Source of the DNA: Escherichia phage phAPEC8 | Reading direction: 5' to 3' (one strand) | Sequence record: NC_020079.1 | DNA length: 64,000 nt | Shown: piece after piece, positions 1-32,962 of the stretch | Position numbering within the stretch: the stretch's first letter is position 1 | How the letters are laid out: every line of letters begins with the position of its first letter | The notes under the pieces: generated by a model | What the model saw: the letters and a program-made list of their open reading frames with translations, nothing else | The model's database searches: none | What the model was told of the DNA's origin: nothing | Made by a program: the position numbers and the translations under genes

Positions 1-29
1 GGGCGCACCAAGCGCCCTTTCTTTTTATA
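1..29 (+). terminator. Rho-independent terminator (GGGCGCACCAAGCGCCC hairpin + T-run)
   Basis: GC stem-loop followed by TTTCTTTTT; identical copy at 5494-5520. Confidence 0.7.
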
Positions 30-47
30 TGTAGAGGATAAACAAAG

Positions 48-233
48 ATGACTTTAAGCGAGCTTAAAACAGCCTACAACGCAACGTTAAAAATAGCCGT
101 GCGTTACCGTGATGCGTATGGTTTTATCGCGCAGGGCGTGATCCTGGGCTTTTCTGACGATGGTTTGATCTATGTTGATGCACATCATAACAAGGTAAAA
201 CCTGAAAACGTCATTAGCATAAAATATCTTTAA
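48..233 (+). CDS. hypothetical small protein
   Basis: ATG ORF with upstream GAGGA SD-like sequence. Confidence 0.5.
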   Translation: MTLSELKTAYNATLKIAVRYRDAYGFIAQGVILGFSDDGLIYVDAHHNKVKPENVISIKYL

Positions 234-239
234 AAGTGG

Positions 240-268
240 TTGACACCATAACCGGACCTGTTAAACTG
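240..268 (+). promoter_or_regulatory. sigma70-like promoter (TTGACA, 17 bp, TAAACT) followed by GC hairpin
   Basis: -35/-10 hexamers read directly; GGGGAA..TTCCCC stem just downstream. Confidence 0.5.
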
Positions 269-318
269 TATTACATCAGGCGGGGAATAGTTCCCCACCA
301 TACAAAAAGGTAAATATC

Positions 319-525
319 ATGATCACAACAAAACAAGAAAAAATTATTACAGACATTGCCGCAGTAGCCGCTATTGCTATTATTGGTACCTACTATGACA
401 CCGCGCGTCCTTCCTCCTTGCATGAGGTCGCCGCCGTTGCATCAGTTGGCGTGCTGTTTTACGTTGGTAAACGCTATTTATCACCAATGATTAACAAGCT
501 GACACCGTGGAAAAATAAAGGTTGA
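319..525 (+). CDS. small hydrophobic (membrane) protein
   Basis: ORF; Ala/Ile/Val-rich stretches consistent with TM helices. Confidence 0.5.
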   Translation: MITTKQEKIITDIAAVAAIAIIGTYYDTARPSSLHEVAAVASVGVLFYVGKRYLSPMINKLTPWKNKG

Positions 526-576
526 TCCTGTTTTACATTGTGTTATAGTTATCGTGTAGGGCGGCAATGGTGCCGC
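522..576 (+). promoter_or_regulatory. promoter (TTGATC/TATAGT) plus conserved 5' hairpin GTAGGGCGGCAATGGTGCCGC
   Basis: hexamers with 16 bp spacer; 21-nt element repeated at 1787-1807 and 3202-3222. Confidence 0.55.
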
Positions 577-596
577 GCCCCTTTGAGGATGCAATC

Positions 597-881
597 ATGA
601 GTAAAGCTAACACCGTGCTAATGTTTTCCCTGATTAATGATCCCGCTTACTTGTCCAACATGACGCAGGAGGGTGACACATTAACGGCAACATTCACCAA
701 TAAGCTTGACCGAGTGATCATCATCTCACTGAAAACAGTTAGTAAAGGCTTTTACTCGTTAGCTTATCATTGGATCACCGATACCGATGAGACAAGCCAG
801 GACTATAGCGCCCCTTTCCCTGAATCAATGGCACGGGAGATCATCGCCGCCGTTGTAAATGATGGTTTGTTTACTGCATAA
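597..881 (+). CDS. hypothetical protein
   Basis: ORF; start moved to ATG 597 (GAGG SD) because track ATG 567 lies inside the 5' hairpin. Confidence 0.5.
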   Translation: MSKANTVLMFSLINDPAYLSNMTQEGDTLTATFTNKLDRVIIISLKTVSKGFYSLAYHWITDTDETSQDYSAPFPESMAREIIAAVVNDGLFTA

Positions 882-979
882 AATAATTCAGAAAAAGGCT
901 TGCAATCATTTTGGGATAATGTATATTTAATGCATAGGGCGGCGGGAATAGTTCCCAAAGCAAACGAGAGGATTACACG

Positions 980-1099
980 ATGAGCAAGTACACAGTAGAA
1001 TACACGGTAGAAAATCCGGCAGTATCCGAAGGTAAAAAGATGACATTTGCCATCAGTAAAATCGCTTTCGTTGTCACTATCTTATCAATCATCTTATAA
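980..1099 (+). CDS. small hydrophobic protein (39 aa)
   Basis: ATG ORF below track size cutoff, GAGAGG SD upstream, follows promoter+hairpin at 899-957. Confidence 0.4.
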   Translation: MSKYTVEYTVENPAVSEGKKMTFAISKIAFVVTILSIIL

Positions 1100-1109
1100 G
1101 GTGCATACC

Positions 1110-1271
1110 ATGAAAACAGCAGACATTATCAAAGAGATCGCCCTTGCCGCTGACGTTGAGATCGAGGAAGTGATCGCGCTCAATCTTACAGAAAACGATC
1201 TGCGCAACTATGAAGCGGAAAGCGTGAAAGCAAGCGGCGCGGTCCTGGCATATAATCCGGCTAACAAATAG
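1110..1271 (+). CDS. hypothetical small acidic protein
   Basis: internal ATG of track ORF 1047-1271 with AAGGTG SD. Confidence 0.45.
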   Translation: MKTADIIKEIALAADVEIEEVIALNLTENDLRNYEAESVKASGAVLAYNPANK

Positions 1272-1350
1272 TTTGACAAGCTGAATCAACCTGATAAGAT
1301 GTATCACATAGGGGCGACAAGCGCCCCGCCTAACAGAAGAGAGAAAAATC

Positions 1351-1629
1351 ATGACCATCGTTAAATTAACAACCGAAGAAATGAAAACAATGTTAACCAC
1401 TAATTTACAAAATTGGAAAATTGGTGTTGACGTTGAAACAGTGTGCAAGTTGAACGACAAACTAACACCGGACGACATTGAAACGATCATCCGTGCAGAT
1501 TTCTATGATGCTTTATACGATGATTCCACAGTCCTTGAAACGATGTTGGATAACGCTTGGATCAATCCCGATTTGGCGGCTTATGGTCATCTTGCCTTTG
1601 AAGCCATCCATAATGTTTATAATCGTTAA
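1351..1629 (+). CDS. hypothetical protein
   Basis: ORF after promoter (TTGACA 1272-1277) and GC hairpin; SD AGAGAGA. Confidence 0.55.
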   Translation: MTIVKLTTEEMKTMLTTNLQNWKIGVDVETVCKLNDKLTPDDIETIIRADFYDALYDDSTVLETMLDNAWINPDLAAYGHLAFEAIHNVYNR

Positions 1630-1639
1630 GGGGGATAAC

Positions 1640-1750
1640 ATGAATCCGAAAGATATGCAAGCATGGAAAGGGTACGACGATCTAAGCGCCTTGCGCAATA
1701 AGTCAAGCCGTAACCTTAGACGGTTGGAAGCAAAGAAAAAGAAAAAATAG
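1640..1750 (+). CDS. small basic protein (36 aa)
   Basis: ATG with strong SD AAGGGGGA; C-terminal part of track ORF 1478-1750. Confidence 0.4.
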   Translation: MNPKDMQAWKGYDDLSALRNKSSRNLRRLEAKKKKK

Positions 1751-1751
1751 T

Positions 1752-1807
1752 TTGACAAGTCCGCGTAGTCTGGTAATATGTATCTTGTAGGGCGGCAATG
1801 GTGCCGC
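1752..1807 (+). promoter_or_regulatory. promoter (TTGACA, 16 bp, TAATAT) plus conserved 5' hairpin GTAGGGCGGCAATGGTGCCGC
   Basis: hexamers and hairpin read directly. Confidence 0.6.
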
Positions 1808-1828
1808 TCACAAGAAGAGAGAAAAATC

Positions 1829-2113
1829 ATGAAAATCACAAAAAGCCTGACTAATTATGCAGCACGTCGCGGATTATGTTTAACCGTTGAAAACTTAGGG
1901 AAAGAAGACTTTTTGTGTTTTTGGGAGCTTGAAAATGATTGCGAATGGATGTTTTCTTATTCTATCTGCGAAGATCAAAACGGTTGTTTGTTAACCTGGC
2001 GCGGTAATATCTATTTACCGGAAGAAATTAAAGAAGAGCTACCAGGTACGATCATGACAGAGAGACAGCTTAAGGAAGTGATCAATTTTGTAGGGCAAAA
2101 CATTAAAAAATAA
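1829..2113 (+). CDS. hypothetical Cys-rich protein
   Basis: ATG with same leader (AGAAGAGAGAAAAATC) as gene at 1351. Confidence 0.5.
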   Translation: MKITKSLTNYAARRGLCLTVENLGKEDFLCFWELENDCEWMFSYSICEDQNGCLLTWRGNIYLPEEIKEELPGTIMTERQLKEVINFVGQNIKK

Positions 2114-2198
2114 TTTGACAGCAGGCAAACAACGTAGTAAAGTTTATTACATAGAGCGGCGGAATGGTCCACCGCTCACAACAGAAGAGAAACAAATC

Positions 2199-2369
2199 AT
2201 GATCCCGACTATGTTTTATGTATCGCGCAAAGGTCACAATATTTTTTGGTCTGAAGATTTAAATGAAGCTATGACGTTTGCCCGTGATCGTGTTGCTATC
2301 GGTGGCGTTAACATCACTGTAACCGATGAAAACGGTATTGAATACTATAACGGCGACGATGAAGAATAA
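2199..2369 (+). CDS. hypothetical small protein
   Basis: internal ATG of track ORF 2115-2369 after promoter/hairpin, conserved leader. Confidence 0.45.
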   Translation: MIPTMFYVSRKGHNIFWSEDLNEAMTFARDRVAIGGVNITVTDENGIEYYNGDDEE

Positions 2370-2446
2370 TTAATGAGGCGGGGGAGTATTCCCCGCCGTC
2401 AATAGGGCGGGGCAATAAGGCAACGCCCACTAATGAGGGTAAAATC

Positions 2447-2551
2447 ATGTTAGAGAAAATTTTCACGGTTGCAGTGGTTGGCCTGGCGTTATCGGTTGGA
2501 GTAGTTGCAACTATGGCTAACATGATCCTATCTTCCCACGGTATCGGTTAA
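2447..2551 (+). CDS. small hydrophobic peptide (34 aa)
   Basis: ATG ORF below cutoff; SD GAGGG; single TM-like segment. Confidence 0.35.
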   Translation: MLEKIFTVAVVGLALSVGVVATMANMILSSHGIG

Positions 2552-2561
2552 GGTGAAACAA

Positions 2562-2777
2562 ATGATCACGAACAAAACAGGCAAAACGGAATTTTTACGC
2601 GGCTTACAAGTTGGTAAACCTGAGATCTGGCATTGCACGAAGTCCGCGCATAACGAAATGAAAGATTTCACCGCTACTTTACAACGTGTTAAAATATCTA
2701 TTACGCAGAAAAAAGCCTTATTAGTAGTAGAAAACGAGATCCCGCAAACTATTATTATTGTCGAGCGTACAGCATGA
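2562..2777 (+). CDS. hypothetical protein
   Basis: track ORF 2553-2777; ATG 2562 preferred over GTG 2553. Confidence 0.45.
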   Translation: MITNKTGKTEFLRGLQVGKPEIWHCTKSAHNEMKDFTATLQRVKISITQKKALLVVENEIPQTIIIVERTA

Positions 2778-3160
2778 AAACAGAAATCATTATTGAAATC
2801 ATCAACGGCTATAAAGAAGCCTTTATTTTTGCTGAATCAGCAAGGGATCATGAAGGTAATTTTATTGATAACTTAGACGATTATGATTTTTCTCCTAGTG
2901 CGGATCAACGGATCGCCCAGGATGTAACAGCCTTTATTAATGCTAATCTTGCCGCTATCTCTGAGGCAATGAGCGACGGCGCAACAGCCAACCAGATCGG
3001 GAATGATTTACATTTTACCCGTAACAGTCACGGCGTAGGCTTTTGGGATCGCCCTGAAATATACACCACTAACACGGCGAACCGCCTAACCAATGCAGCT
3101 AAGTTTATGCCGAACGTGTCGGCTTACATTGGTGAAGATAATTTGATTTATATTGAATAA
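2774..3160 (+). CDS. hypothetical protein
   Basis: ORF, ATGA overlap with upstream gene. Confidence 0.5.
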   Translation: MKTEIIIEIINGYKEAFIFAESARDHEGNFIDNLDDYDFSPSADQRIAQDVTAFINANLAAISEAMSDGATANQIGNDLHFTRNSHGVGFWDRPEIYTTNTANRLTNAAKFMPNVSAYIGEDNLIYIE

Positions 3161-3166
3161 AAAGTA

Positions 3167-3222
3167 TTGACACAGATCGCCAGTGTGCTAATATTTACCA
3201 CGTAGGGCGGCAATGGTGCCGC
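3167..3222 (+). promoter_or_regulatory. promoter (TTGACA/TAATAT) plus conserved 5' hairpin GTAGGGCGGCAATGGTGCCGC
   Basis: third exact copy of the 21-nt hairpin element. Confidence 0.6.
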
Positions 3223-3241
3223 CGATAATGAGGAAAATAAA

Positions 3242-3541
3242 ATGGAAACTATCGCTATTGTTACCGTAGAAAAACTGGTTGTTGGTGATGTATTCGCGTT
3301 AATGGTACCTAACAGCAGCAAGCTGGGCGCTTATGAAGTGATGGATCATAAAAATGAATCATTTGGCGACGGTTGCACAATGGCGGTAAAATCCTTAAAG
3401 GATGGAATCATCCGTCAAGCTAATTGGCACAAAGGGAATCAAGTCGGATTAATATCAGCTAATTTCTTGCCAGAACAGCAAACGTTAGACCAACTATCAG
3501 GCGGTAAGACGTTAGCCGAACTACTGGAAACAGCGATCTAA
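3242..3541 (+). CDS. hypothetical protein
   Basis: ORF with SD GAGGAAAA. Confidence 0.55.
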   Translation: METIAIVTVEKLVVGDVFALMVPNSSKLGAYEVMDHKNESFGDGCTMAVKSLKDGIIRQANWHKGNQVGLISANFLPEQQTLDQLSGGKTLAELLETAI

Positions 3542-3585
3542 TCAACAAAGGGGCGGCAACGCCCCACATCAGAAAGGAAAAGATT

Positions 3586-3822
3586 ATGAGTATTGCAACA
3601 GTATTAACCGCCGTTAAAACCGCTGAATCATCCGGCTTGCATGTTGAGCTTATAGATCAACCAGGTGGCGATCTCCTTGTCCAGGTTTACCCGCCGAAAG
3701 TAGGGGATGATCATTATTGGTGTTATTCTGATACGTTCGAACAAGTAGACACGAAAGCGATCACAGCCTTTATTTTAAAAGCCGTTGAAGAAAATAACTT
3801 TCATTATAACATCAATCAATAA
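3586..3822 (+). CDS. hypothetical protein
   Basis: ORF preceded by GGGGCGGCAACGCCCC hairpin and A-rich SD. Confidence 0.5.
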   Translation: MSIATVLTAVKTAESSGLHVELIDQPGGDLLVQVYPPKVGDDHYWCYSDTFEQVDTKAITAFILKAVEENNFHYNINQ

Positions 3823-3876
3823 ACCATAAGCAGGGCGGTAACGCCCCATTAAACGCAATAGGAAGAGGATAGACGC

Positions 3877-4161
3877 ATGAAAAAGATGATCGCAGTAGTT
3901 GCCCTGGTTGTTGGTATTAACGCGCCTACACTGGCTAATGAGTTGCCAGAATCCATCACGCTAACCGACATCAACGCAGTGAATCGGATCGGTGTTAATT
4001 ATCGCCTATGCCTTGCCGCTAAAACTTTCCAGGACGGCACGACAGAGTACTACGGATTCGAGGGTATCCGCTGCGGTGAGCTTGCACGCGACCTTAAGGA
4101 AGATCCAGACCTTGAGGCCATACCGATGACCGTAAACGGTAAAGCCCACGTAAACCGCTAA
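3877..4161 (+). CDS. secreted/periplasmic small protein
   Basis: N-terminal signal-peptide-like MKKMIAVVALVVGINAPTLA. Confidence 0.55.
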   Translation: MKKMIAVVALVVGINAPTLANELPESITLTDINAVNRIGVNYRLCLAAKTFQDGTTEYYGFEGIRCGELARDLKEDPDLEAIPMTVNGKAHVNR

Positions 4162-4163
4162 CC

Positions 4164-4298
4164 ATGAGAAAGGTAATCATCACAATGGGGATCGTAGTAG
4201 CAACGCTGGCGCTTATCCCTTTCATGGTTGAACATGTGCTGATCAGTGTTGTCCTTGTAGTCAGTGACCTATTGGAAACGGTTGGCACCTGGTTTTAA
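4164..4298 (+). CDS. small membrane peptide (44 aa)
   Basis: ATG ORF below cutoff; hydrophobic; terminator-like hairpin + T-run at about 4307-4332. Confidence 0.35.
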   Translation: MRKVIITMGIVVATLALIPFMVEHVLISVVLVVSDLLETVGTWF

Positions 4299-4550
4299 GA
4301 TAATAAATAGGGCTTGCAATAGTCCTATTTTTTGTTATACTTGTTGAACGGGCGGCACCTGGGAGCAGGGGAAGATAATCACCGGAAGACTCCGCTATAT
4401 ATTGATAACTAACGCCTATCAAACAACAAAACATCAAAGTAACAAACTATCAAATCTTTACAATTCCACCTATTGACACCGGATCACGCTTACACTATTA
4501 TTTATCACGTAGGGCGAGCAATACAGCAAGCCCACAAAGAGGAAAATAAA

Positions 4551-4919
4551 ATGAGCAAATCAGCAATTAAAGCACTTGAAAAAGCACAAAAAGTGATCGC
4601 CACTTCCACCACTGGCACAAGTATTAATCTGGTCGCTTACTTGGAAGATGAAACTATCCGTAAAAATTGGCGTAATGCTGATTTACTGGCTTGCTTGTTG
4701 ATTAATAGTGTCGCTAATGCTTTCCAGTGTGAAACAGCCGAGAGCCTAGAACAAAACTTGTTCGATAATATGGACCAAGCAATTGAAACATATATCCAAT
4801 CTAATTTGGACAGCTGGAACAGTAAAACATGGCCTGACAGCTTACGCGATACAACTGATCAACTGATCCGCCTTGCCCTGATGGTTGAACGCGATAACGT
4901 TTACAACAGCACAAAGTAA
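4551..4919 (+). CDS. hypothetical protein
   Basis: internal ATG with SD AGAGGAAAA; track ATG 4473 lies inside the TTGACA promoter. Confidence 0.5.
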   Translation: MSKSAIKALEKAQKVIATSTTGTSINLVAYLEDETIRKNWRNADLLACLLINSVANAFQCETAESLEQNLFDNMDQAIETYIQSNLDSWNSKTWPDSLRDTTDQLIRLALMVERDNVYNSTK

Positions 4920-5058
4920 GATTATACAAGGGCGCACTAAGCGCCCTTTAACGTAAAGAAATGTAAATAATGCGCTATTCCCTATTGACAGGGGATCGGC
5001 GTTATATTATATTTAACTCACTGGCAGCAAACAACGAAACGAAACAAAGGACAACACC

Positions 5059-5478
5059 ATGAACATTAAATCAAATAATCCGGCTTACTCCTTCGATAAC
5101 GCTTTTTGTCACGGTAGCGCCGCCAAAGGCTTCGAAATCGATGGTAAATTGGTTATCGTGAACGTTGACGGGGAAGAGGTTGCAGTATATCCGGTAAACG
5201 ATGTTAAAAGCCGTTTACAATGCCGCATGGATGTTACCGCATATCAGCTTGATCCGATCCGTGTAGTTGCCCTGGTATTAGAGGAAGAGATCAAAGCAAT
5301 GCATCACAGCAATAAGTTTATTGGTGACGCGCAGGATAATATGAACGTTTGCCGCCATAAAGTTAATGAAGCACTGAAAGAATGCGGTTTTAAGGATCTG
5401 ATGATCAAACGTGATGAAAAATTCCGCTTTCGTAATGACCTGGCAAACCGGATCTACTCAATCTATGAAGCGTTATAA
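5059..5478 (+). CDS. hypothetical protein
   Basis: ORF after promoter TTGACA 4985-4990. Confidence 0.55.
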   Translation: MNIKSNNPAYSFDNAFCHGSAAKGFEIDGKLVIVNVDGEEVAVYPVNDVKSRLQCRMDVTAYQLDPIRVVALVLEEEIKAMHHSNKFIGDAQDNMNVCRHKVNEALKECGFKDLMIKRDEKFRFRNDLANRIYSIYEAL

Positions 5479-5493
5479 TTGACAACAAAACAA

Positions 5494-5520
5494 GGGGCGC
5501 ACCAAGCGCCCTTTCTTTTT
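5494..5520 (+). terminator. Rho-independent terminator, identical to 1-29
   Basis: GGGCGCACCAAGCGCCC + TTTCTTTTT. Confidence 0.7.
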
Positions 5521-7020
5521 GCCCGAACAATGTTGATAGCTTTCGCCTATGAAAAACCGACACAGAACAAAATTGAATAAATCGCGGTATCGAGCTAATC
5601 AACCATTAAACGAATAACCATACCTCCCAGGGTAACAGGCTGTTAGAGAGCCATTTAAAGCGGTTAAAATCGATCAACAACCAACAACAAACCATCAAAA
5701 ACACCCTTTTACCTCCTTTCTAGTGCAATGATAACCATTATCATCTATCCATGTTTATCTATGCAATATAAGTGCATAACTATAATGTTGATAATAGTTC
5801 GCAACAACTAACTAACCAACAACCTAAAACAATAAGCAAACTAATCATAATCAAAGGAATAATAGCAAGATGATTGATAACGACAAACAATCAAACCATG
5901 ATGAATACTAAGCAAGATAACGATAACACGACAAAACAACCAACTAACGAACAATAACAAACGAAACCATTAAAATAACAACTATTAGCAAAATAGTGCC
6001 TGAATGAAATCATTACAAAACGAATCATTCACAGGATCATCATTAGCACGCTATGCCGGACACATAGCGAGCTAATAATAAGCCAACTACACCCCAACAA
6101 TCATAACCATCGGTGATGGTTATTTCTTGTTACTGCGTAGCTTGCAATAATTGCAAGCGTAATTACGCTTACACTTATTGCGCTGGCTTATTATTAGCAT
6201 TATATGTAATTACCAAGATCATAACATTAGCGCAATAACAATAATCATTGTGGTAATTACAAGATGAGATCATTAGCAAGATGAATAATTGCACGTAGCA
6301 ACATGAGCGAATAGCGACAGGTTGCATAGTGTGCACATAGTGTATAAACATACAAGAAAATAAAGGCTAATCTTTTGGGGGCGAATACTATCGCGTAGCG
6401 ATATGTTGAGCACCTTCTCTTAAACGTAAATAAAATCAGAATAATCTTGATTTATTTTAGTTTTTATGTTAATAAACGTTTAAATAATAATCATTCTCAT
6501 ATAAATAATAGTCCGTTTGTCATGAGCGGGATTAGTTGACAGTGTTCCGTCATATGATGAAGTTGCCAACCCCTTGATAAATAAGCCTTTGTGTGATTTA
6601 TAATCAAGTGGCCCACCTTGTCGCTACGTTGGCATGAAGCTTGCATAAGTCATTGAATACGAATGATAATTATTCTCATTCGCATGATATTTGGGAATTG
6701 TCGCTGCGTGGACCTGACGGCCCGAAAATTCGCGTTAAGCACTTCTTACGTATACGCCATGATTTTTGCCATATGATATTGATTCTATTAGATATTCTTG
6801 CCATGATTGCCATGAAACAGGGTGTCCCGAAATAATCTCTCCCCGTAGATATTTTGGGTTACTTTTTATACAAGAGTGGGGTGTCAAAAATAATCGGTAT
6901 ATATGGGATAATTGATAGGAATCCCCTATGATAATTCGATTGTAATTCCCTAAGATTGATCGTATGATGTTGGTGATTGATGATTGCCATGAAAGATGGC
7001 TAACGATGAGAGGAGATTAT
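5521..7020. other. ORF-poor, A+C-skewed, palindrome-rich non-coding region
   Basis: no credible ORF; CAACAA-type low complexity; palindromes GCGTAATTACGC, TTGCAATAATTGCAA; repeated CATTAGCA and TTGCCATGA motifs. Confidence 0.6.
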
Positions 7021-8209: not shown

Positions 8210-8458
8210 TTGTGTGCAATGATCACACCACAACAGAATGAAGCCGCAATGGATCTTCTTGATAGTTTGTATTTCGATAATTGGTACTCTGAATGTGAAT
8301 GGATGAATATGCAAACTCTGAAAGAGAAGACAAAAGCGTTGATTACAGTAGATCAATTTCTTGCAGAGACGGAAAGAATGAATTATGATATGGCATCTCG
8401 CGCACGACGCGTTTCCATTTTCAATAAAATGTTAGCATTATGGGGAGGTAGAAAATGA
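8210..8458 (+). CDS. hypothetical protein
   Basis: ORF tiling. Confidence 0.5.
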   Translation: MCAMITPQQNEAAMDLLDSLYFDNWYSECEWMNMQTLKEKTKALITVDQFLAETERMNYDMASRARRVSIFNKMLALWGGRK

Positions 8459-8916
8459 GACAACTATCTATACTAGAAGCGCATGTGCAATGTGTTGTAG
8501 ATTATGTCAAAGAACACTCAAGTTTGTTGAATGTAACCTGTGCAGTGCAAAACGATGTAGGTATTGTCTGTGTGCAACATATCTTATCTGAAACTCGTTA
8601 TGAAGTATTTCGTGCCACGTTGTTTGGATGTGATCGAGTACATGTAAACTTCCTGGACTCCAATTATCGTTATGCTTTAGAAAATATTGATGATTATCTT
8701 CCTTGCTCTCCGACAGGATATGTAATGGTAACAGCAAACGAAGTAACGCCAAACAACAGTGAGCAGGAAGCTTTGTTACGGAAGAAAATACGCCAACTAC
8801 AAGTGTTGAATGAACTGAAAGAAGAGATTGAAAAAGAACTAAAAGAAGATTTTGGTATGCTTCCAAAAGACGCTTTGAAATGGTATGATGAACTAGGAGG
8901 AGAGAACAATGTTTAA
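8455..8916 (+). CDS. hypothetical protein
   Basis: ORF, ATGA overlap, SD GGGGAGG. Confidence 0.55.
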   Translation: MRQLSILEAHVQCVVDYVKEHSSLLNVTCAVQNDVGIVCVQHILSETRYEVFRATLFGCDRVHVNFLDSNYRYALENIDDYLPCSPTGYVMVTANEVTPNNSEQEALLRKKIRQLQVLNELKEEIEKELKEDFGMLPKDALKWYDELGGENNV

Positions 8917-11295: not shown

Positions 11296-11484
11296 ATGAT
11301 AATTGAGATTAAACTTGAATATGCTGGGGCTGTTGCTCTGATCGCACAAATGCTTGGAGCAAAGATTGAAGAAGTGTATATCAATGCCTGGAGCGTAGAG
11401 ATTGATGTTCCTATGGACAACATTGCTAATCGCTTGCTGGTGGCAGAGTGTGAACGCACCAACATAATCTACAAAGGAGCATAA
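11296..11484 (+). CDS. hypothetical small protein
   Basis: ATG with SD GAGGTG. Confidence 0.45.
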   Translation: MIIEIKLEYAGAVALIAQMLGAKIEEVYINAWSVEIDVPMDNIANRLLVAECERTNIIYKGA

Positions 11485-11485
11485 T

Positions 11486-11707
11486 ATGAAAATTAGAGTT
11501 TGTGATGTATTGGGTTATGTTGGTTTTGAGAATGTTCAGATTCCTTTTATTGTTGAAGCACATCTTGTTAGTGATGATATGACAACATTCTTTGTTACGA
11601 TAGAAGAAATGTCCAAAGTTGAGGGATGGGAGTGGTTTGAAGAAGATGTTTGGGAAGGTTGTGATTACGTATTTTTCTCTGACGAAGTGAATGTTCTTTC
11701 GGAGTAG
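11486..11707 (+). CDS. paralog family B member 2
   Basis: EGWEWFEEDVWEGCDYVFFSDEVN matches 7985-8206 C-terminus. Confidence 0.5.
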   Translation: MKIRVCDVLGYVGFENVQIPFIVEAHLVSDDMTTFFVTIEEMSKVEGWEWFEEDVWEGCDYVFFSDEVNVLSE

Positions 11708-11709
11708 GT

Positions 11710-11916
11710 ATGTCTCGTTTTACAAAAGCAGTGTCCATATGTAAGAAACAGTATGAAAGTGATTACGGAATATTTAATATTCCAGCGGATCATACAGAGT
11801 ATTGTTCATGTGGTAGCAGAATGAAGAAAACAGTGATTTATGCGGATAATGGAGATGAACTTGTTCCGGTTATGGTTTGCAAAGCTTGTCATTCTGTTAA
11901 AACATTAAAAGCGTAA
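11710..11916 (+). CDS. small Cys-rich (zinc-ribbon-like) protein
   Basis: CSCGSR ... CKACH pairs. Confidence 0.45.
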   Translation: MSRFTKAVSICKKQYESDYGIFNIPADHTEYCSCGSRMKKTVIYADNGDELVPVMVCKACHSVKTLKA

Positions 11917-12011
11917 GGAGTCGGGACACCCGACGATTGGAGCTAAAAATTTTGCGTACAACCCTTTCCGCCCAACAGGGGCGCGTCGGGTAAATAAAGA
12001 GGAGAGTTTAT

Positions 12012-13766: not shown

Positions 13767-14039
13767 ATGAATAAAGATCGGTTTCTTTCTTTAGTCGCGG
13801 AAGCTCCTTTTGATGTTCTTGGGGTGAGATTATGGAAAGACAGAAACTATGGGTTAGATGTTCAAACATACTCTCTTTGGTTGGTTGGGGAACACAGCTT
13901 AGATGAAAGCTTGTGCATGGGTAGGGATTCTCGTTCCCTCTGTTTAAAGTTCAGAAGCTTAGAACGCGCAAACAAAGAGCAAGAAAAACTAACGAGGTGG
14001 CTAAATGAAAACAAGCGCAAGGTTGATGGAGTTTTATAA
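13767..14039 (+). CDS. hypothetical protein
   Basis: ORF after promoter TTGACA 13707-13712; SD AAGGTGG. Confidence 0.5.
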   Translation: MNKDRFLSLVAEAPFDVLGVRLWKDRNYGLDVQTYSLWLVGEHSLDESLCMGRDSRSLCLKFRSLERANKEQEKLTRWLNENKRKVDGVL

Positions 14040-14331
14040 AATTTATCTAGCATGGATTGATGTTGGTGCTCCTGATGGTAAACCTTTTCGGCGGGATTGC
14101 GGTTTGTGTGCCAACTTATTCGACTATGTGCACGCGGATGGCTACAATCCCCTTATAACAACCTTGTCAGATGAAATGCACGCACAGTTTTACCACAAAG
14201 GGTTGAGTCAAGAATTACCCTTCAATGAGAACTACGATGCATATGTCTTAGAATCAGATGCAGAGGTATGTCACCTGAATGTGGACAGGATTAATTGGGT
14301 AAGAGATCGTATTGCAGAGGAGGATGAATAA
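14005..14331 (+). CDS. paralog family A member 4
   Basis: MEFYKIYLAWI, CGLCANL, KGLSQELPFN, RINWVRDRI. Confidence 0.6.
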   Translation: MKTSARLMEFYKIYLAWIDVGAPDGKPFRRDCGLCANLFDYVHADGYNPLITTLSDEMHAQFYHKGLSQELPFNENYDAYVLESDAEVCHLNVDRINWVRDRIAEEDE

Positions 14332-14558: not shown

Positions 14559-14773
14559 TCATGTGGATTGTGCGTCTTAAGTATGATGGCAAGTTTCCGT
14601 GGGAGAAAGATGTTTGTGCTTGTGATTCGGCAGCACATGCCAAAGCAGCGGGTCAGGCAGTAGTTGACATGTATAACAACACTTCCGTTGATCCAGAAAT
14701 GGCAGGTGTTACAATGAGCATGTTCACTTACTATTCTTTTGAGGTTTACTATCATGAAGGAGAGTGGAAATGA
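14555..14773 (+). CDS. hypothetical protein
   Basis: ORF, overlaps neighbours by 4 nt. Confidence 0.5.
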   Translation: MIMWIVRLKYDGKFPWEKDVCACDSAAHAKAAGQAVVDMYNNTSVDPEMAGVTMSMFTYYSFEVYYHEGEWK

Positions 14774-15090
14774 GCGAAGAACTATTAACATTTTACCGCA
14801 CGTATTTGGCATGGTTGGAAGCTGGTGCTCCTGAAGGCGAACCGTTCACCCGTTGCACAGGTTTGTGCTCGAACCTCTATGATTTTTACGATATGGGTGA
14901 AAGCGAACGATACGAACCCGTACTGGATGAAATGCATGAGCAGTTCTACCACAAAGATTTGGTTATGGTGTTGCCTTTCAACAGTAATTTTGGAAAGTAC
15001 ACCTTAGAAGCGGAAAAAAGCCGTTGTCATTTGAATGTGGATCGTGTGAACTGGGTAAAAGAACGTGTAGCAGAAGAAATAAATAGTTGA
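14770..15090 (+). CDS. paralog family A member 5
   Basis: MSEELLTFYRTYLAWL, TGLCSNL, LPFN, RVNWVKERV; ATG chosen over GTG 14764. Confidence 0.6.
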   Translation: MSEELLTFYRTYLAWLEAGAPEGEPFTRCTGLCSNLYDFYDMGESERYEPVLDEMHEQFYHKDLVMVLPFNSNFGKYTLEAEKSRCHLNVDRVNWVKERVAEEINS

Positions 15091-16556: not shown

Positions 16557-16626
16557 ATAATAAATACCTTGACAAGTGTTTATTCGTTTTGTAAAGTGAG
16601 AATACAGCAATGGTTTAGGAGTGGTT

Positions 16627-17298
16627 ATGAAAAAGTTTGTTGTTTACAGTCGTCTTTCTAAACAGAAAAAAGGTGAGGCACAATATGGTATGGAGAGCCA
16701 AGAGAATGATATCCGTTACTTCTTAGACTCTGTGCCTGATGCGGAAGTTATTGGTCAATTTTCTGAATACTATTCGGGTAAGGGCGATTGGAAGCAACGT
16801 AAGGAACTGGTTAAAGCGGTTGAAATGTGTAAAGCTACCGGAGCAACTTTATTGGTAGCTAAAGTTGACCGCTTGGGTCGTAACAACGCCTCCGTAGCAA
16901 CTCTTCTAGAGATGATCGATGTTAAGATAGCCATCATGCCAGACGCAGATAAAATGGTTATACAGCTTCTGTCTGTTCTGGCTGAACAAGAAGTTAGAGG
17001 TATTGCTGATCGTATTAAAAAGGGTCTTGCTGTAGCAAAAAGCAAAGGTGTTTTATTAGGCAGTGCTAATCCTAAAACTGCCGCTGCACGTAGAAAAGGG
17101 AAAATGGAATACAACTCTGTTAAAGCAGACGCTTTTGCAGAGACATTCCGTGAACGCTTGGAGATCCTTAGAGATTTAAATACACCTTACAAAACTATTG
17201 CTGAAAAATTCAATAGTAAGAAAATAGCAACAGCACGTGGTGGTAAATGGGATGCTAAAACTGTTTCTCGTTTGTGTGCCAGACTGAACATTAAATAG
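16627..17298 (+). CDS. small serine recombinase (resolvase/invertase family)
   Basis: YSRLS (Ser nucleophile context), LLVAKVDRLGRN, E-helix LSVLAEQEVRGIADR; own TTGACA promoter at 16571. Confidence 0.7.
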   Translation: MKKFVVYSRLSKQKKGEAQYGMESQENDIRYFLDSVPDAEVIGQFSEYYSGKGDWKQRKELVKAVEMCKATGATLLVAKVDRLGRNNASVATLLEMIDVKIAIMPDADKMVIQLLSVLAEQEVRGIADRIKKGLAVAKSKGVLLGSANPKTAAARRKGKMEYNSVKADAFAETFRERLEILRDLNTPYKTIAEKFNSKKIATARGGKWDAKTVSRLCARLNIK

Positions 17299-17306
17299 GA
17301 GAGGAT

Positions 17307-17729
17307 ATGAAACAAGAAAATGAATCTGTAGATCACTTAATCATGCTGTCAGCCCTTTTTGCCGGATGGGACGTATTTTTTGAAAATTTGTTCAATTCTT
17401 CTACAGATGGTTCCGATTTTATGCGCCAGTTTAAACGACGAACTGTTGAGGACTATGCTTTCTATTCAGGTCGGATTGAAAAAGGTTACGAAGATACAAA
17501 TACAACACTCACCATTAAAGTTTTAGATGTGATGTTTAGTGTTATAGATGCTATCGACGAAAGTCTTCCGATCCTAGACAATTGTAATACGAAAGCCTAT
17601 GTTTACAAAATAGCTCGTGCTTATGTGTCTGCAAACAGTTGTCTTCTTTCCACCCAGATTGCCGTGAACAATCTTGCCAACTTGTTTGATGAAGGAGAAA
17701 CTTTTTATGACAATCGATTTGAAGTGTAA
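17307..17729 (+). CDS. hypothetical protein
   Basis: ORF, SD TAGGAGAGG. Confidence 0.5.
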   Translation: MKQENESVDHLIMLSALFAGWDVFFENLFNSSTDGSDFMRQFKRRTVEDYAFYSGRIEKGYEDTNTTLTIKVLDVMFSVIDAIDESLPILDNCNTKAYVYKIARAYVSANSCLLSTQIAVNNLANLFDEGETFYDNRFEV

Positions 17730-18072
17730 GAGGATTCTTTTAGATTTCTATAATAATTGGTTAGAACACCTCCGTCTCTTTCCAAGAGAAAGTGGTTACG
17801 CTGATGTTGGCTTATGCCGAGGTCTGCGTATGTATATAAGTGATGAATTTCGGGCAGAGCATTCTTTAGCATATTCTGTTTATGGTATGCAATTAGCCAG
17901 TTTTGAAAACGCTGGCTTAGATACAACTTTCCCATTTAACACAGCAAAATCTTTTGATCAAGAGTGTAAGGAAAAACGTTGCATGTTTAATGAAAAACGT
18001 GTACAGTGGGTTAAGGATCGAGTTAAACAACTGGAACAAGAGTTGGATTTCTTCTATGATGAGGCAGAATAA
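17707..18072 (+). CDS. paralog family A member 6
   Basis: LLDFYNNWL, VGLCRGL, AGLDTTFPFN, RVQWVKDRV; ATG after GAAGGAGAA. Confidence 0.55.
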   Translation: MTIDLKCKRILLDFYNNWLEHLRLFPRESGYADVGLCRGLRMYISDEFRAEHSLAYSVYGMQLASFENAGLDTTFPFNTAKSFDQECKEKRCMFNEKRVQWVKDRVKQLEQELDFFYDEAE

Positions 18073-18960: not shown

Positions 18961-19011
18961 TAGTTGCACCCCGTTCTGCGGGGTGTTATTGTATATGTAA
19001 AGGAGGCGCTA

Positions 19012-19350
19012 ATGTATTACACTGAAGACTACATATTGTATAACTTTTTTAAAGGTTGGTTGAAATGGGCGGAACAAGCTCCTGTCGGAGATTGTGTTTT
19101 TCCTTGGGATTCTCGTCAAGGCTTGTGTCGTTGTTTGGAAGATTGGCTTATAACCACAAACTACAATTCAGAAACTAAGAAATCTACATCAAACAGATTA
19201 AAAATGTTGTTTGAAGAAGATGGTTTAGATCCAATTTATCCTTTCGGTGAGGAAAGTTTCCACAATGGTCTTTTCCTTGGCACTCAACATTATGATAAAG
19301 ATCGTGTAGATTGGGTAAAAGAAAAGGTAGCACAGTATGAATGGGGTTAA
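19012..19350 (+). CDS. paralog family A member 7
   Basis: FFKGWLKW, QGLCRCL, DGLDPIYPFG, RVDWVKEKV; ATG after AAAGGAGG. Confidence 0.55.
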   Translation: MYYTEDYILYNFFKGWLKWAEQAPVGDCVFPWDSRQGLCRCLEDWLITTNYNSETKKSTSNRLKMLFEEDGLDPIYPFGEESFHNGLFLGTQHYDKDRVDWVKEKVAQYEWG

Positions 19351-23455: not shown

Positions 23456-23490
23456 GTAGCAATAAAACCCGCTTCGGCGGGTTTTTTCAT
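23456..23490 (+). terminator. Rho-independent terminator
   Basis: AACCCGCTTCGGCGGGTT hairpin + TTTTTT. Confidence 0.7.
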
Positions 23491-28131: not shown

Positions 28132-28221
28132 AATATTTCTCCTCTATTGGTTGATAGGTTAAGTTTATCAAGCTTCCAGATTCCTGTCAATAAAAAACCC
28201 GCCGAAGCGGGTTATTATTTA

Positions 28222-31931: not shown

Positions 31932-32522
31932 TCAAATTATTAACGAAACCGCATGACTAAATCTTGGTTCAGATATAACCTCTGCTACAGTCACATATGT
32001 ATCGTGCAGCCAAAAAGATTCTACTCTACAAACACAAATACCGTTGATAATGAAATCTACACAGGCTTTATTATTTTCGCACACTTGTTGACTATAAACA
32101 ACCCCTAAAGAGTCATAAAGTGATCTCACTGTTGCTACCATTTCATCTGTTTCGTCTTCCTGTGAAACAAAGAAAACGAATACAGACAAGTTATTAGCGA
32201 AAGTATTGCTATTCTCTACTTCAACCGACTTACAAGGTAAAAAGGAGTAATATTTACCGTTAGGTATCAATTTCGCCTCAACCTGGTTAAGTATGCTTTG
32301 AGATGGTTTTGTTACATAAAAAAGATTTTCTGTTGGGTTTTCAACATTACTCCTTACTATGCAACGAGTGGGGTTCGAAGGATCAAAAACATGATCGAAA
32401 TCGACACACACAGGTAAGTTAACAACTTTAAACTTTTTGCTAAGAATGCTTACTGCTGTAAAAATCAAACCAGCATTTATTTTGCCAGTGAAAGTTGAAC
32501 GCATAACTACTCCTCGGATCAT
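31932..32522 (-). CDS. hypothetical protein
   Basis: ORF tiling. Confidence 0.5.
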   Translation of the reverse strand: MIRGVVMRSTFTGKINAGLIFTAVSILSKKFKVVNLPVCVDFDHVFDPSNPTRCIVRSNVENPTENLFYVTKPSQSILNQVEAKLIPNGKYYSFLPCKSVEVENSNTFANNLSVFVFFVSQEDETDEMVATVRSLYDSLGVVYSQQVCENNKACVDFIINGICVCRVESFWLHDTYVTVAEVISEPRFSHAVSLII

Positions 32523-32713
32523 TCTACCAAAGAGAATTCCGCCTCTTCCAGGTAGATTACAGACCTTGTTGCATGATATTTAACGCTCCAGAAATTACCT
32601 TCGCGCCGTAAAAGTATCTCATTCACATCAAGATTGCTTAGAAAAACCATATAACTTAAAGCTTGTTGACGCGTTGAGAATTGTTTCTCTAAAAGTTCTT
32701 CTCCGCTCTGCAT
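32519..32713 (-). CDS. hypothetical small protein
   Basis: ORF tiling. Confidence 0.45.
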   Translation of the reverse strand: MQSGEELLEKQFSTRQQALSYMVFLSNLDVNEILLRREGNFWSVKYHATRSVIYLEEAEFSLVE

Positions 32714-32758
32714 AATCCCTCCTTAAAATACTCCCTCCGAAAAGGGAGTATAAGTATA

Positions 32759-32962
32759 TCACGTAGTTGTTATGTTGTCTTCTTGGATTCTAGAATCCAC
32801 TTCTGCAAACATATCTTCTGCACTGTAATTATTTCCAGTCCAGCGTGATAAAAGGATAGCACCAATCTCTTTTGCATGAGATTCGGACTCCGCATAAACG
32901 TTAGTCCCAGTGTCACCTTTTTTCTTTTCATGTGCATAAATGCAGTAATAATTGTAAGCCAT
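32759..32962 (-). CDS. hypothetical small protein
   Basis: ORF tiling. Confidence 0.45.
   Translation of the reverse strand: MAYNYYCIYAHEKKKGDTGTNVYAESESHAKEIGAILLSRWTGNNYSAEDMFAEVDSRIQEDNITTT

Follow-up and report, generated by a model that had tools for sequence, protein, structure and literature searches.

What does a virulent phage do with a site-specific serine recombinase? The question is raised by a gene of Escherichia phage phAPEC8, which we analyzed within a 64,000-nucleotide (nt) stretch of record NC_020079.1 (the window; all positions without another source refer to it). The phage belongs to Phapecoctavirus, a group of virulent myoviruses of ~150 kb in the subfamily Stephanstirmvirinae. 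A first-pass annotation of the window, made from its letters alone, had taken the phage to be virulent, in line with a published description of the genus as strictly lytic (PMC10282059). The gene is already annotated publicly. When a phage is considered for therapy, a recombinase gene is commonly taken as a warning of lysogeny. Here we describe an enzyme, conserved and by sequence catalytically intact, that appears to be neither an integrase nor an invertase and is fixed across a strictly lytic coliphage subfamily. Tentatively, we suggest that it resolves or cyclises the phage's own DNA.

A small serine recombinase with an integrase-type DNA-binding motif

The first-pass annotation had described a 224-amino-acid open reading frame (ORF). 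The ORF stands, and its product has 223 amino acids, the figure of 224 counting the stop codon. The resolvase/invertase motifs that had been named are all present, with YSRLS at residues 7 to 11, VAKVDRLGRN at residues 77 to 86, and the E-helix (Table 1; catalytic positions are given in the numbering of the tool used). Pfam Resolvase (PF00239) matched residues 5 to 142 with E = 5e-18 (66 bits against a cut-off of 23.3), and PHROG 125, "DNA invertase," matched with E = 3e-32; the match to an integrase-family PHROG was weaker. An AlphaFold model built from 54 homologues, with a predicted local distance difference test (pLDDT) score of 88, showed a catalytic core of mixed alpha/beta fold, followed by a long E-helix and, at the C terminus, a domain of four helices. 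When this model was used in a fold search of the Protein Data Bank, the top matches were Sin, gamma-delta resolvase, TP901-1, and Bxb1. The E-helix has its counterpart in helix E of the Tn3 and gamma-delta resolvases, with which it aligned. Taken together with the invariant catalytic residues, these matches agree with the earlier identification of a small serine recombinase. The protein is a member of a known superfamily, within a subfamily that is distinct, mainly phage-borne, and uncharacterised.

Residues Y7, R9, S11, Q25, R58, D81, R82, and R85 were invariant in 54 family members, down to ~30% identity, which argues for retained catalysis beyond mere DNA binding. The same invariance, extending to the serine itself, speaks against a domesticated DNA-binding protein that would regulate transcription or replication by binding without recombining. 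Such a regulator would be in keeping with the lack of partner sites in our searches and with an operator-like, dyad-rich element that lies over the −35 hexamer of the gene's own promoter in Rhodobacterales (see below); we nevertheless consider it very unlikely. Compared with its counterparts in phages Ro121lw and ESCO13, the gene showed 13 and 12 synonymous differences, respectively, and no nonsynonymous ones, and the ratio of nonsynonymous to synonymous substitution rates (dN/dS) was ~0.17 against a 75%-identical homologue. By these sequence comparisons, the ORF is an intact gene under strong purifying selection.

The gene is also widely shared. The phAPEC8 stretch is 96 to 99% identical to dozens of GenBank records, and 61 phage records encode the recombinase with at least 99% identity. 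Identity is 74 to 80% in a few divergent members, 55 to 58% in phi92-like phages (Justusliebigvirus) and Klebsiella relatives, 35 to 39% in Vibrio phages of 134 to 140 kb, and 30% in those ICP1 isolates that have a homologue. Virtually every Phapecoctavirus or phi92-like genome carries the recombinase unit.

The C-terminal part was then compared with known DNA-binding domains. HTH_7 (PF02796) gave no match in the recombinase at E ≤ 0.1. The family profile matched Gin, Tn3, and gamma-delta resolvase strongly, but over the catalytic domain and E-helix only; Gin was its top solved-structure match (E = 1.6e-17, catalytic domain only). Profile alignments to the large serine integrases Bxb1 and SPbeta extended to residues 202 to 216, and PF07508 "Recombinase" matched residues 187 to 216 weakly (E = 0.003, below the cut-off). 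The family has a conserved C-terminal motif, IAxxLNxxGxxTxRGxxWxxxxVxR, which we take to be the hallmark of the first helix-turn-helix in the "recombinase domain" of large serine recombinases. On the basis of the Bxb1 and SPbeta alignments, the PF07508 match, and this motif, we describe the protein as a small serine recombinase whose DNA-binding motif is of the integrase type. A model of the isolated C-terminal domain (pLDDT, 84) had Bxb1 as its best structural match, which was weak (root mean square deviation, 2.1 Å over 57 columns; probability, 0.85; E ~0.4).

That the protein is too small for a large serine integrase, as had been remarked from its length, is confirmed by the model, which ends after the four-helix domain at 223 amino acids and contains no full recombinase domain, zinc ribbon, or coiled coil. 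Nor did we find an N-terminal MerR-like helix-turn-helix of the kind found in IS607-type transposases, the catalytic domain beginning at residue 2. The NCBIfam models all scored far below their cut-offs (YneB, 32 bits versus 175; XisF, 27 versus 375; Mpi, 22.6 versus 272; CcrB, 17.5 versus 900), and PADLOC gave no match for the recombinase.

Inversion is disfavoured by genome structure

The first-pass annotation had raised the possibility of an inversion switch. A DNA invertase running a phase-variable switch of tail fibres or of a promoter, as Gin does in Mu and Cin in P1, is what PHROG 125 and several GenBank records imply by name, and the profile match to Gin described above points in the same direction. 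Such a switch needs to be weighed against the structure of the genomes. A self-BLAST of the whole genome of the closely related phage ESCO13 returned no inverted repeat longer than 22 nt, and the 22-nt pair proved to be a terminator hairpin. A search across the whole window for inverted repeats likewise gave nothing notable except a perfect 22-nt pair (23466 to 23487 and 28192 to 28213). We considered this pair, AACCCGCTTCGGCGGGTTTTTT, as crossover sites and rejected it; it is a bidirectional terminator hairpin, and the enclosed 4.7-kb segment is never inverted in relatives. That segment, with the AACCCGCTTCGGCGGGTTTTTT copies on opposite strands at its ends, carries Sir2-like and methyltransferase genes. 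Around the recombinase gene itself, neither direct nor inverted repeats beyond chance were found, which bears out the earlier remark that no att-like repeats flank it.

We further screened for inversion isomers with five 25-kb stretches, namely, 75 to 100 kb (baseplate and tail-fibre genes), 100 to 125 kb, and 124 to 149 kb of ESCO13 and 1 to 25 kb and 25 to 50 kb of the window. Together these cover ~125 of 150 kb, ESCO13 46 to 75 kb being left out. Each stretch had one collinear place per record, with roughly 40 to 60 Phapecoctavirus genomes among the matches listed per stretch; the exceptions were matches divided by the end of a record and the WPEC records, which are rearranged. All tail-fibre genes fall within collinear stretches. 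Since neither inverted repeats longer than 22 nt in ESCO13 and the window nor inversion polymorphism among the listed relatives was found, the inversion switch is disfavoured. The missing HTH_7 domain, the score of the Mpi model (NF009949) far under its cut-off, and the lack of convincing inverted repeats beside bacterial homologues tell against an invertase as well, and we regard this reading as largely refuted and highly improbable.

The WPEC records deserve separate mention. WPEC1, WPEC2, WPEC4, and WPEC6 (155 to 161 kb) differ in arrangement from all other Phapecoctavirus genomes. In these records, the recombinase region is inverted or displaced relative to the tail genes; in one example, the equivalent of ESCO13 12.9 to 36.6 kb is inverted and placed past 60.1 kb. 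Examination of WPEC6 (PV763039, positions 1 to 50000) showed junctions inside genes with 2 to 4 nt of microhomology and many tiny ORFs, as in indel-rich assemblies. Site-specific inversion was considered for these rearrangements, which we read instead as misassembly or illegitimate recombination.

The gene travels with a predicted promoter of its own

A TTGACA promoter had been proposed ahead of the gene. By itself, a hexamer scan is not above chance, with 26 sites in the interval from 13 to 21 kb versus 21.4 ± 4.6 expected. The promoter is credible because it is conserved across homologues. Measured from the start codon, a sigma-70-like −35/−10 pair keeps its position among the phi92-like, Klebsiella, Vibrio, and ICP1 phages and also in prophages of alphaproteobacteria (Table 1), and the −10 element ends 25 to 40 nt 5′ of the ATG in every promoter compared. 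An exact TTGACA was detected at −75 to −40 in 43 of 164 related loci, compared to 2 of 164 in a control window. The promoter copies of ESCO13 and of a related locus (L005) have diverged, and both hexamers are retained; in the phi92-type group, the hexamers are kept and the spacer is free to change, which is the pattern of a promoter and not of a protein-binding dyad. The earlier proposal thus holds as a prediction, with the phAPEC8 site conserved in position among divergent homologues, and as far as sequence comparison goes, the recombinase gene travels with its own promoter.

A 26-bp imperfect palindrome, AATAAATACCTTGACAAGTGTTTATT (16559 to 16584), lies over the −35 hexamer. It was examined as a crossover site or operator and attributed to chance.

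The block in which the recombinase lies consists of small rightward genes that begin just past the left terminal repeat and have many similar promoters. From this gene layout and the sigma-70-type promoters, we infer that the gene is placed among early genes.

Placement in the early block appears to be derived

In phi92, alia, Serratia phage KKP_3264, Klebsiella phage phi1_175008, and relatives from IMG/VR, the promoter and recombinase lie between homologues of gp054 and gp052. The corresponding junction in phAPEC8 (Table 1) holds a terminator-like hairpin at 32730 to 32749 and nothing else; the assignment of 32519 to 32713 to phi92 gp052 was made by BLASTP (E = 2e-8). This ancestral setting is a leftward module of PhoH, HslV-like, DNA methyltransferase, NinI phosphatase, and DprA-like genes. 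In lineages at 35 to 49% identity, the recombinase also lies in the module, adjoining the methyltransferase or DprA-like gene, and it has diverged about as far as the genes around it. The module position in distant lineages and this parallel divergence indicate that the phi92-type position is ancestral, with long vertical descent, and on the same comparisons the placement of the Phapecoctavirus recombinase in the early block is derived. The moved unit comprises the promoter and ORF alone, and the next gene begins 8 to 9 bp past the stop codon in both contexts.

Within Phapecoctavirus, the upstream neighbour of the recombinase differs between a phAPEC8 type and an ESCO13 type. Similarity between the two phages is ~60% in the promoter and 98% from the ATG on, a jump that, judged from the alignment, is ordinary mosaicism via the conserved 5′ coding end.

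We asked whether the unit might be a selfish mobile cassette, a promoter and gene that would move themselves between intergenic positions or genomes with little or no benefit to the phage. The precise boundaries at two locations within one subfamily would fit such an element, as would the different contexts in Vibrio phages, ICP1, and prophages, the constant presence of a promoter with the gene, and a possible natural null allele in one isolate, Schickermooser (see below). However, neither terminal repeats nor common end motifs were found at the two insertion contexts, a single relocation is seen across the whole subfamily, and the ESCO13 mosaic joint lies at the conserved 5′ coding end, as in ordinary homologous exchange. 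The fixation of the gene in essentially every Phapecoctavirus and phi92-like genome and the zero nonsynonymous change among three alleles (the phAPEC8 stretch, Ro121lw, and ESCO13) also argue against selfishness, which we judge to be quite unlikely.

Bacterial relatives

Homologues at 35 to 41% identity are common in Alphaproteobacteria, where they lie in prophage-like islands. A tyrosine integrase belonging to the island is encoded 2 to 6 genes away (32 loci), and terminase, primase, and exonuclease genes are present too. Other bacterial homologues lie at prophage ends beside tail or baseplate genes, and one adjoins a large serine integrase. With separate integrases nearby, the small recombinase is not the integrase of those elements. 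For homologues near tail or baseplate genes (Pseudomonas aeruginosa and one further contig), no convincing inverted repeats were found beside the gene.

The Rhodobacterales loci (L091 to L136 and others) share a conserved upstream element, GT(T/A)(A/G)CA-N2-3-CACAAC-N3-4-CGTTGACATTTGCAAC, in which GTTG...CAAC dyads overlap the −35 hexamer and the 16-nt core CGTTGACATTTGCAAC is located at −58 to −72 from the recombinase start. A second copy of the core was not found within ±8 kb, allowing up to 3 mismatches, in nearly all Rhodobacterales loci. This element is a candidate operator or single res-like site and does not have the pattern of an invertible segment. The coliphage group has no conserved equivalent of it upstream. 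A CACAAC...TTGACA string 5′ of the genes of L006 and Klebsiella phages had been likened to the Rhodobacterales motif and was discarded, as it is the 3′ coding end (…ITTT-stop) of the preceding gene.

Possible roles of the recombinase

Serine recombinases bind dyad sites as dimers, and two bound sites synapse as a tetramer. The serine cuts all four strands, giving 5′-phosphoserine links and 2-nt staggered breaks, one half rotates by 180 degrees, and the ends are religated. By this family chemistry, dimers of the phAPEC8 protein would bind a short dyad site, two bound sites would form the tetrameric synapse, and Ser11 would cleave the four strands via 5′-phosphoserine, followed by 180-degree rotation of one half and rejoining. 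The target could be a single-copy or degenerate site elsewhere on the phage DNA, used early in infection, and the outcome would then be deletion or resolution, or the cyclisation of multimeric or terminally repeated replicative forms, and not inversion.

Four observations lead us to favour such single-site resolution or cyclisation: the lack of inverted sites and isomers, the single element of the alphaproteobacterial loci, the long residence of the gene in a DNA-metabolism module, and its predicted early-type expression. The site might lie elsewhere on the phage DNA since the gene moved without flanking DNA, which is the weakest step in this reasoning. Direct terminal repeats (DTRs) of 342 to 343 bp are annotated in phi92 and BME3, so that linear DNA repeated at its ends is at hand as a possible substrate; any site inside the repeat would be present as two direct copies per incoming genome, as when P1 Cre cyclises DNA. 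P1 Cre acts at a single site per genome, where it cyclises terminally redundant DNA and resolves dimers. We put forward early action at a single-copy or degenerate phage site, with resolution, deletion, or cyclisation as its result, as a tentative reading whose chances we rate somewhat below even. The recombinase is probably a dispensable accessory function. The first-pass annotation had also named resolution of replication dimers and domestication of a mobile-element gene, either of which may apply. The literature holds one speculative sentence on the matter, in which the recombinase is proposed as a resolvase for concatemers that keeps single genomes (PMC10282059).

Several points weigh against this tentative reading. 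No recombination site for the recombinase was identified anywhere. For a res-like site, there are only 57 to 70 bp upstream, where phi92-like, L006, and Klebsiella phages share no conserved sequence but the promoter hexamers; coding sequence lies beyond this gap, and the downstream gap is 8 to 9 bp. Because the phi92-like promoter spacers vary freely, we conclude that no res-like site adjoins the gene. The palindrome AATAAATACCTTGACAAGTGTTTATT occurs once in the window, and its right arm is not kept in ESCO13, L005, and phiWec186, which retain the hexamers only. Short terminal repeats impose no obvious need for a resolvase. In ICP1, only some isolates have a homologue, which is located in a variable region. 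The Schickermooser allele, if real, would mean that the gene is dispensable for plaque formation. Finally, experiments on any family member were not found in the searchable literature.

Other candidates for a target were set aside. Among non-coding blocks conserved between phAPEC8 and phi92, the sole strong one, ~8393 to 8500, is not a dyad site. A palindromic element at 6071 to 6198 has an odd centre, long-range stems, and compensatory changes, which fit a folded nucleic acid better.

Alternatively, the recombinase could be directed at the host or at competitors, as an early enzyme, transcribed from a promoter of the host type, that rearranges, excises, or breaks chromosomal, prophage, satellite, or co-infecting phage DNA in takeover or counter-defence. 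This would be in keeping with a promoter-equipped, early-type accessory cassette among small genes without assigned function, with its sporadic occurrence in the variable early region of ICP1 and its presence at prophage ends, and with the failure to find a cognate site on the phage genome. In bacteria, a statistical association of small serine recombinases with mobile defence genes has also been reported (PMC13552941; Andersen et al. 2026), and it would suit such a role. On the other hand, PADLOC gave no match, no host target is known, and the vertical retention in a DNA-metabolism module in several phage lineages fits a role on the phage's own DNA at least equally. We therefore consider a host- or competitor-directed function unlikely.

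More broadly, the family might represent widespread, unstudied "mini" serine recombinases, each a catalytic domain plus the first integrase-type helix-turn-helix, that virulent phages would deploy early to cyclise or monomerise their own terminally repeated DNA at one simple site, as Cre does, or to rearrange host or rival DNA as counter-defence. This generalization is speculative, and we think it doubtful that it will hold as a whole; if true, genome engineering would gain a compact recombinase that needs only simple sites.

Annotation of the gene in public records

Existing records name the gene "resolvase" (ESCO13 and Ro121lw), "serine recombinase," "DNA invertase" (phi92 gene 053), or "recombinase family protein." In LR597654, MW175890, MT496970, OR062529, and others, it bears the wrong name "methionine ABC transporter ATP-binding protein," evidently a misannotation copied between records. 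ESCO5 and ESCO37 were said to have no predicted recombinase (PMC10269720); contrary to that report, their records encode a 100%-identical protein or cover the gene region at 98.7% nucleotide identity.

In Schickermooser (NC_048196, positions 11303 to 11952), about six small deletions remove 19 nt altogether from the recombinase allele. The first of them shifts the frame immediately past the Ser11 codon, and just a C-terminal 129-amino-acid ORF is annotated. It is the sole such case among 63 records and may be a natural null or a sequencing or assembly error.

Genome ends and neighbouring sequences

The coordinates of the recombinase gene, its parts, and the related sites are collected in Table 1.

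Table 1. Recombinase locus of the phAPEC8 window and promoter hexamers of homologous genes
Feature	Position or source	Strand	Details
Recombinase ORF	16627..17298	+	ATG at 16627, stop codon 17296-17298; 223 amino acids plus stop
Catalytic domain, residues 1-105	16627..16941	+	R9, nucleophile S11, D81/R82/R85; PF00239 match
E-helix (oligomerisation and strand-exchange helix), residues 109-139	16951..17043	+	Secondary structure of AlphaFold model
C-terminal four-helix domain, predicted DNA-binding, residues 149-219	17071..17283	+	AlphaFold model
Ribosome-binding site AGGAG	16617..16621	+	5 nt 5′ of ATG; read from sequence
Sigma-70-type promoter-like site TTGACA-17 nt-TAAAGT	16569..16597	+	A/T-rich stretch 5′ of site; within 70-bp upstream gap
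Empty ancestral site	32714..32758	-	Junction of gp054 homologue (32759-32962) and gp052 homologue (32519-32713)
Promoter hexamers	phi92		TTGACT-17-CATACT
Promoter hexamers	L006 and Klebsiella phage		TTGACA-17-CATACT
Promoter hexamers	Vibrio 1.170.O		TTGACA-17-TAGAAT
Promoter hexamers	ICP1		TTGACA-16-TATTCT
Promoter hexamers	ESCO13, L005, phiWec186		TTGACA-18-TAAAAT

The neighbours of the recombinase comprise PHROGs without assigned function and DUF7202 only. Four paralogues of phrog_2510 surround it (14005 to 14331, 14764 to 15090, 17674 to 18072, and 18964 to 19350) and have a common C-terminal motif, ...NVDR.NWV..R.... In ESCO13, the variable region 5′ of the recombinase contains a perfect 100-bp tandem duplication (11414 to 11612). 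The conserved block at ~8393 to 8500, which is ~97% identical to phi92 637 to 745, spans a terminator, a 5′ untranslated region, and the start of the first early gene; this identity is far above the genome average and suggests a recent exchange of that gene.

The region ~6409 to 6809 is the probable DTR, or genome end. Positions 25 to 93 of the left DTR of phi92 (DTR-L) aligned to 6433 to 6499, the BME3 DTR mapped to ~6468 to 6809, phi92 position 1 corresponds to about 6409, and many Phapecoctavirus records begin at 6409 or 6662. By this mapping, the right and left ends of the genome meet within the window. In non-coding 5520 to 7020, a short way upstream of the terminal repeat, the nested inverted-repeat element at 6071 to 6198 has an outer stem, GCTAATAATAAGCCA / TGGCTTATTATTAGC, and inner hairpins. 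As single-stranded DNA, its predicted fold is much more stable than those of shuffled sequences (z = −7.9), and BME3, a phi92-like phage, has two copies with compensatory stem changes. Rfam gave no match for the element, and no link between it and the recombinase was demonstrable; candidate identities are an origin, a packaging element, and a small RNA.

Two further repeat types were seen nearby. The dyad AATGATAAT(T/C)ATT(C/A)TCAT occurs in three copies (5727 to 5744, 6483 to 6500, and 6662 to 6679), with similar copies in the BME3 terminal repeat; the AATGATAAT dyads are candidate matches to the Escherichia coli Fur box (GATAATGATAATCATTATC), which they may resemble. In the far early region, ~1 to 5520 (equivalent to ESCO13 139 to 149.8 kb), very small genes are separated by about ten direct-repeat copies of a unit made up of a promoter and a stem-loop (…TAATATTTACCACGTAGGGCGGCAATGGTGCCGC…). 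These units are reminiscent of the gene-shuffling cassettes of T4-type phages, which likewise combine a promoter and a stem-loop.

Comparison with known recombination systems

The phAPEC8 recombinase shares its catalytic fold, catalytic residues, and E-helix with Tn3 and gamma-delta resolvase and with Sin, and its size is similar to theirs (~190 to 220 amino acids). When the single protein was searched, these were its closest sequence matches among solved structures, and they are also its closest folds. They often are self-contained units with a promoter overlapping their own site, whereas the phAPEC8 gene has no adjoining multi-subsite res region and its C-terminal domain is not HTH_7. Unlike in Tn3 and gamma-delta resolvase, the loop before helix E is two residues shorter, and unlike those systems, which reside on transposons or plasmids, the phAPEC8 gene sits in a virulent phage.

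Gin of Mu, Cin of P1, and Hin are likewise small serine recombinases of phages, and several records label the phAPEC8 gene in this way. It differs from them in its DNA-binding domain and in having no invertible segment, inverted crossover sites, or isomers among relatives. The small serine recombinases proposed as defence-island markers also lie beside accessory genes, which they are suggested to mobilise (PMC13552941). Those genes are bacterial and chromosomal, whereas the phAPEC8 gene has no PADLOC match and its neighbours are phage genes without assigned function.

For the suggested role in resolution or cyclisation, Cre-loxP provides a functional analogy. Cre is a tyrosine recombinase of the temperate phage P1, and the phAPEC8 enzyme is unrelated to it in sequence, with no lox-like site found. 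In DNA binding, the nearest likeness is to the integrases of Bxb1, phiC31, A118, and SPbeta, in which the start of the recombinase domain is matched by the C-terminal helix-turn-helix motif of the phAPEC8 protein. The remaining recombinase domain, zinc ribbon, and coiled coil of these large integrases, which serve attP/attB choice and directionality, are missing from it. Should its target prove to be a simple single site, the phAPEC8 protein would be among the smallest recombinases with an integrase-type DNA-binding motif.

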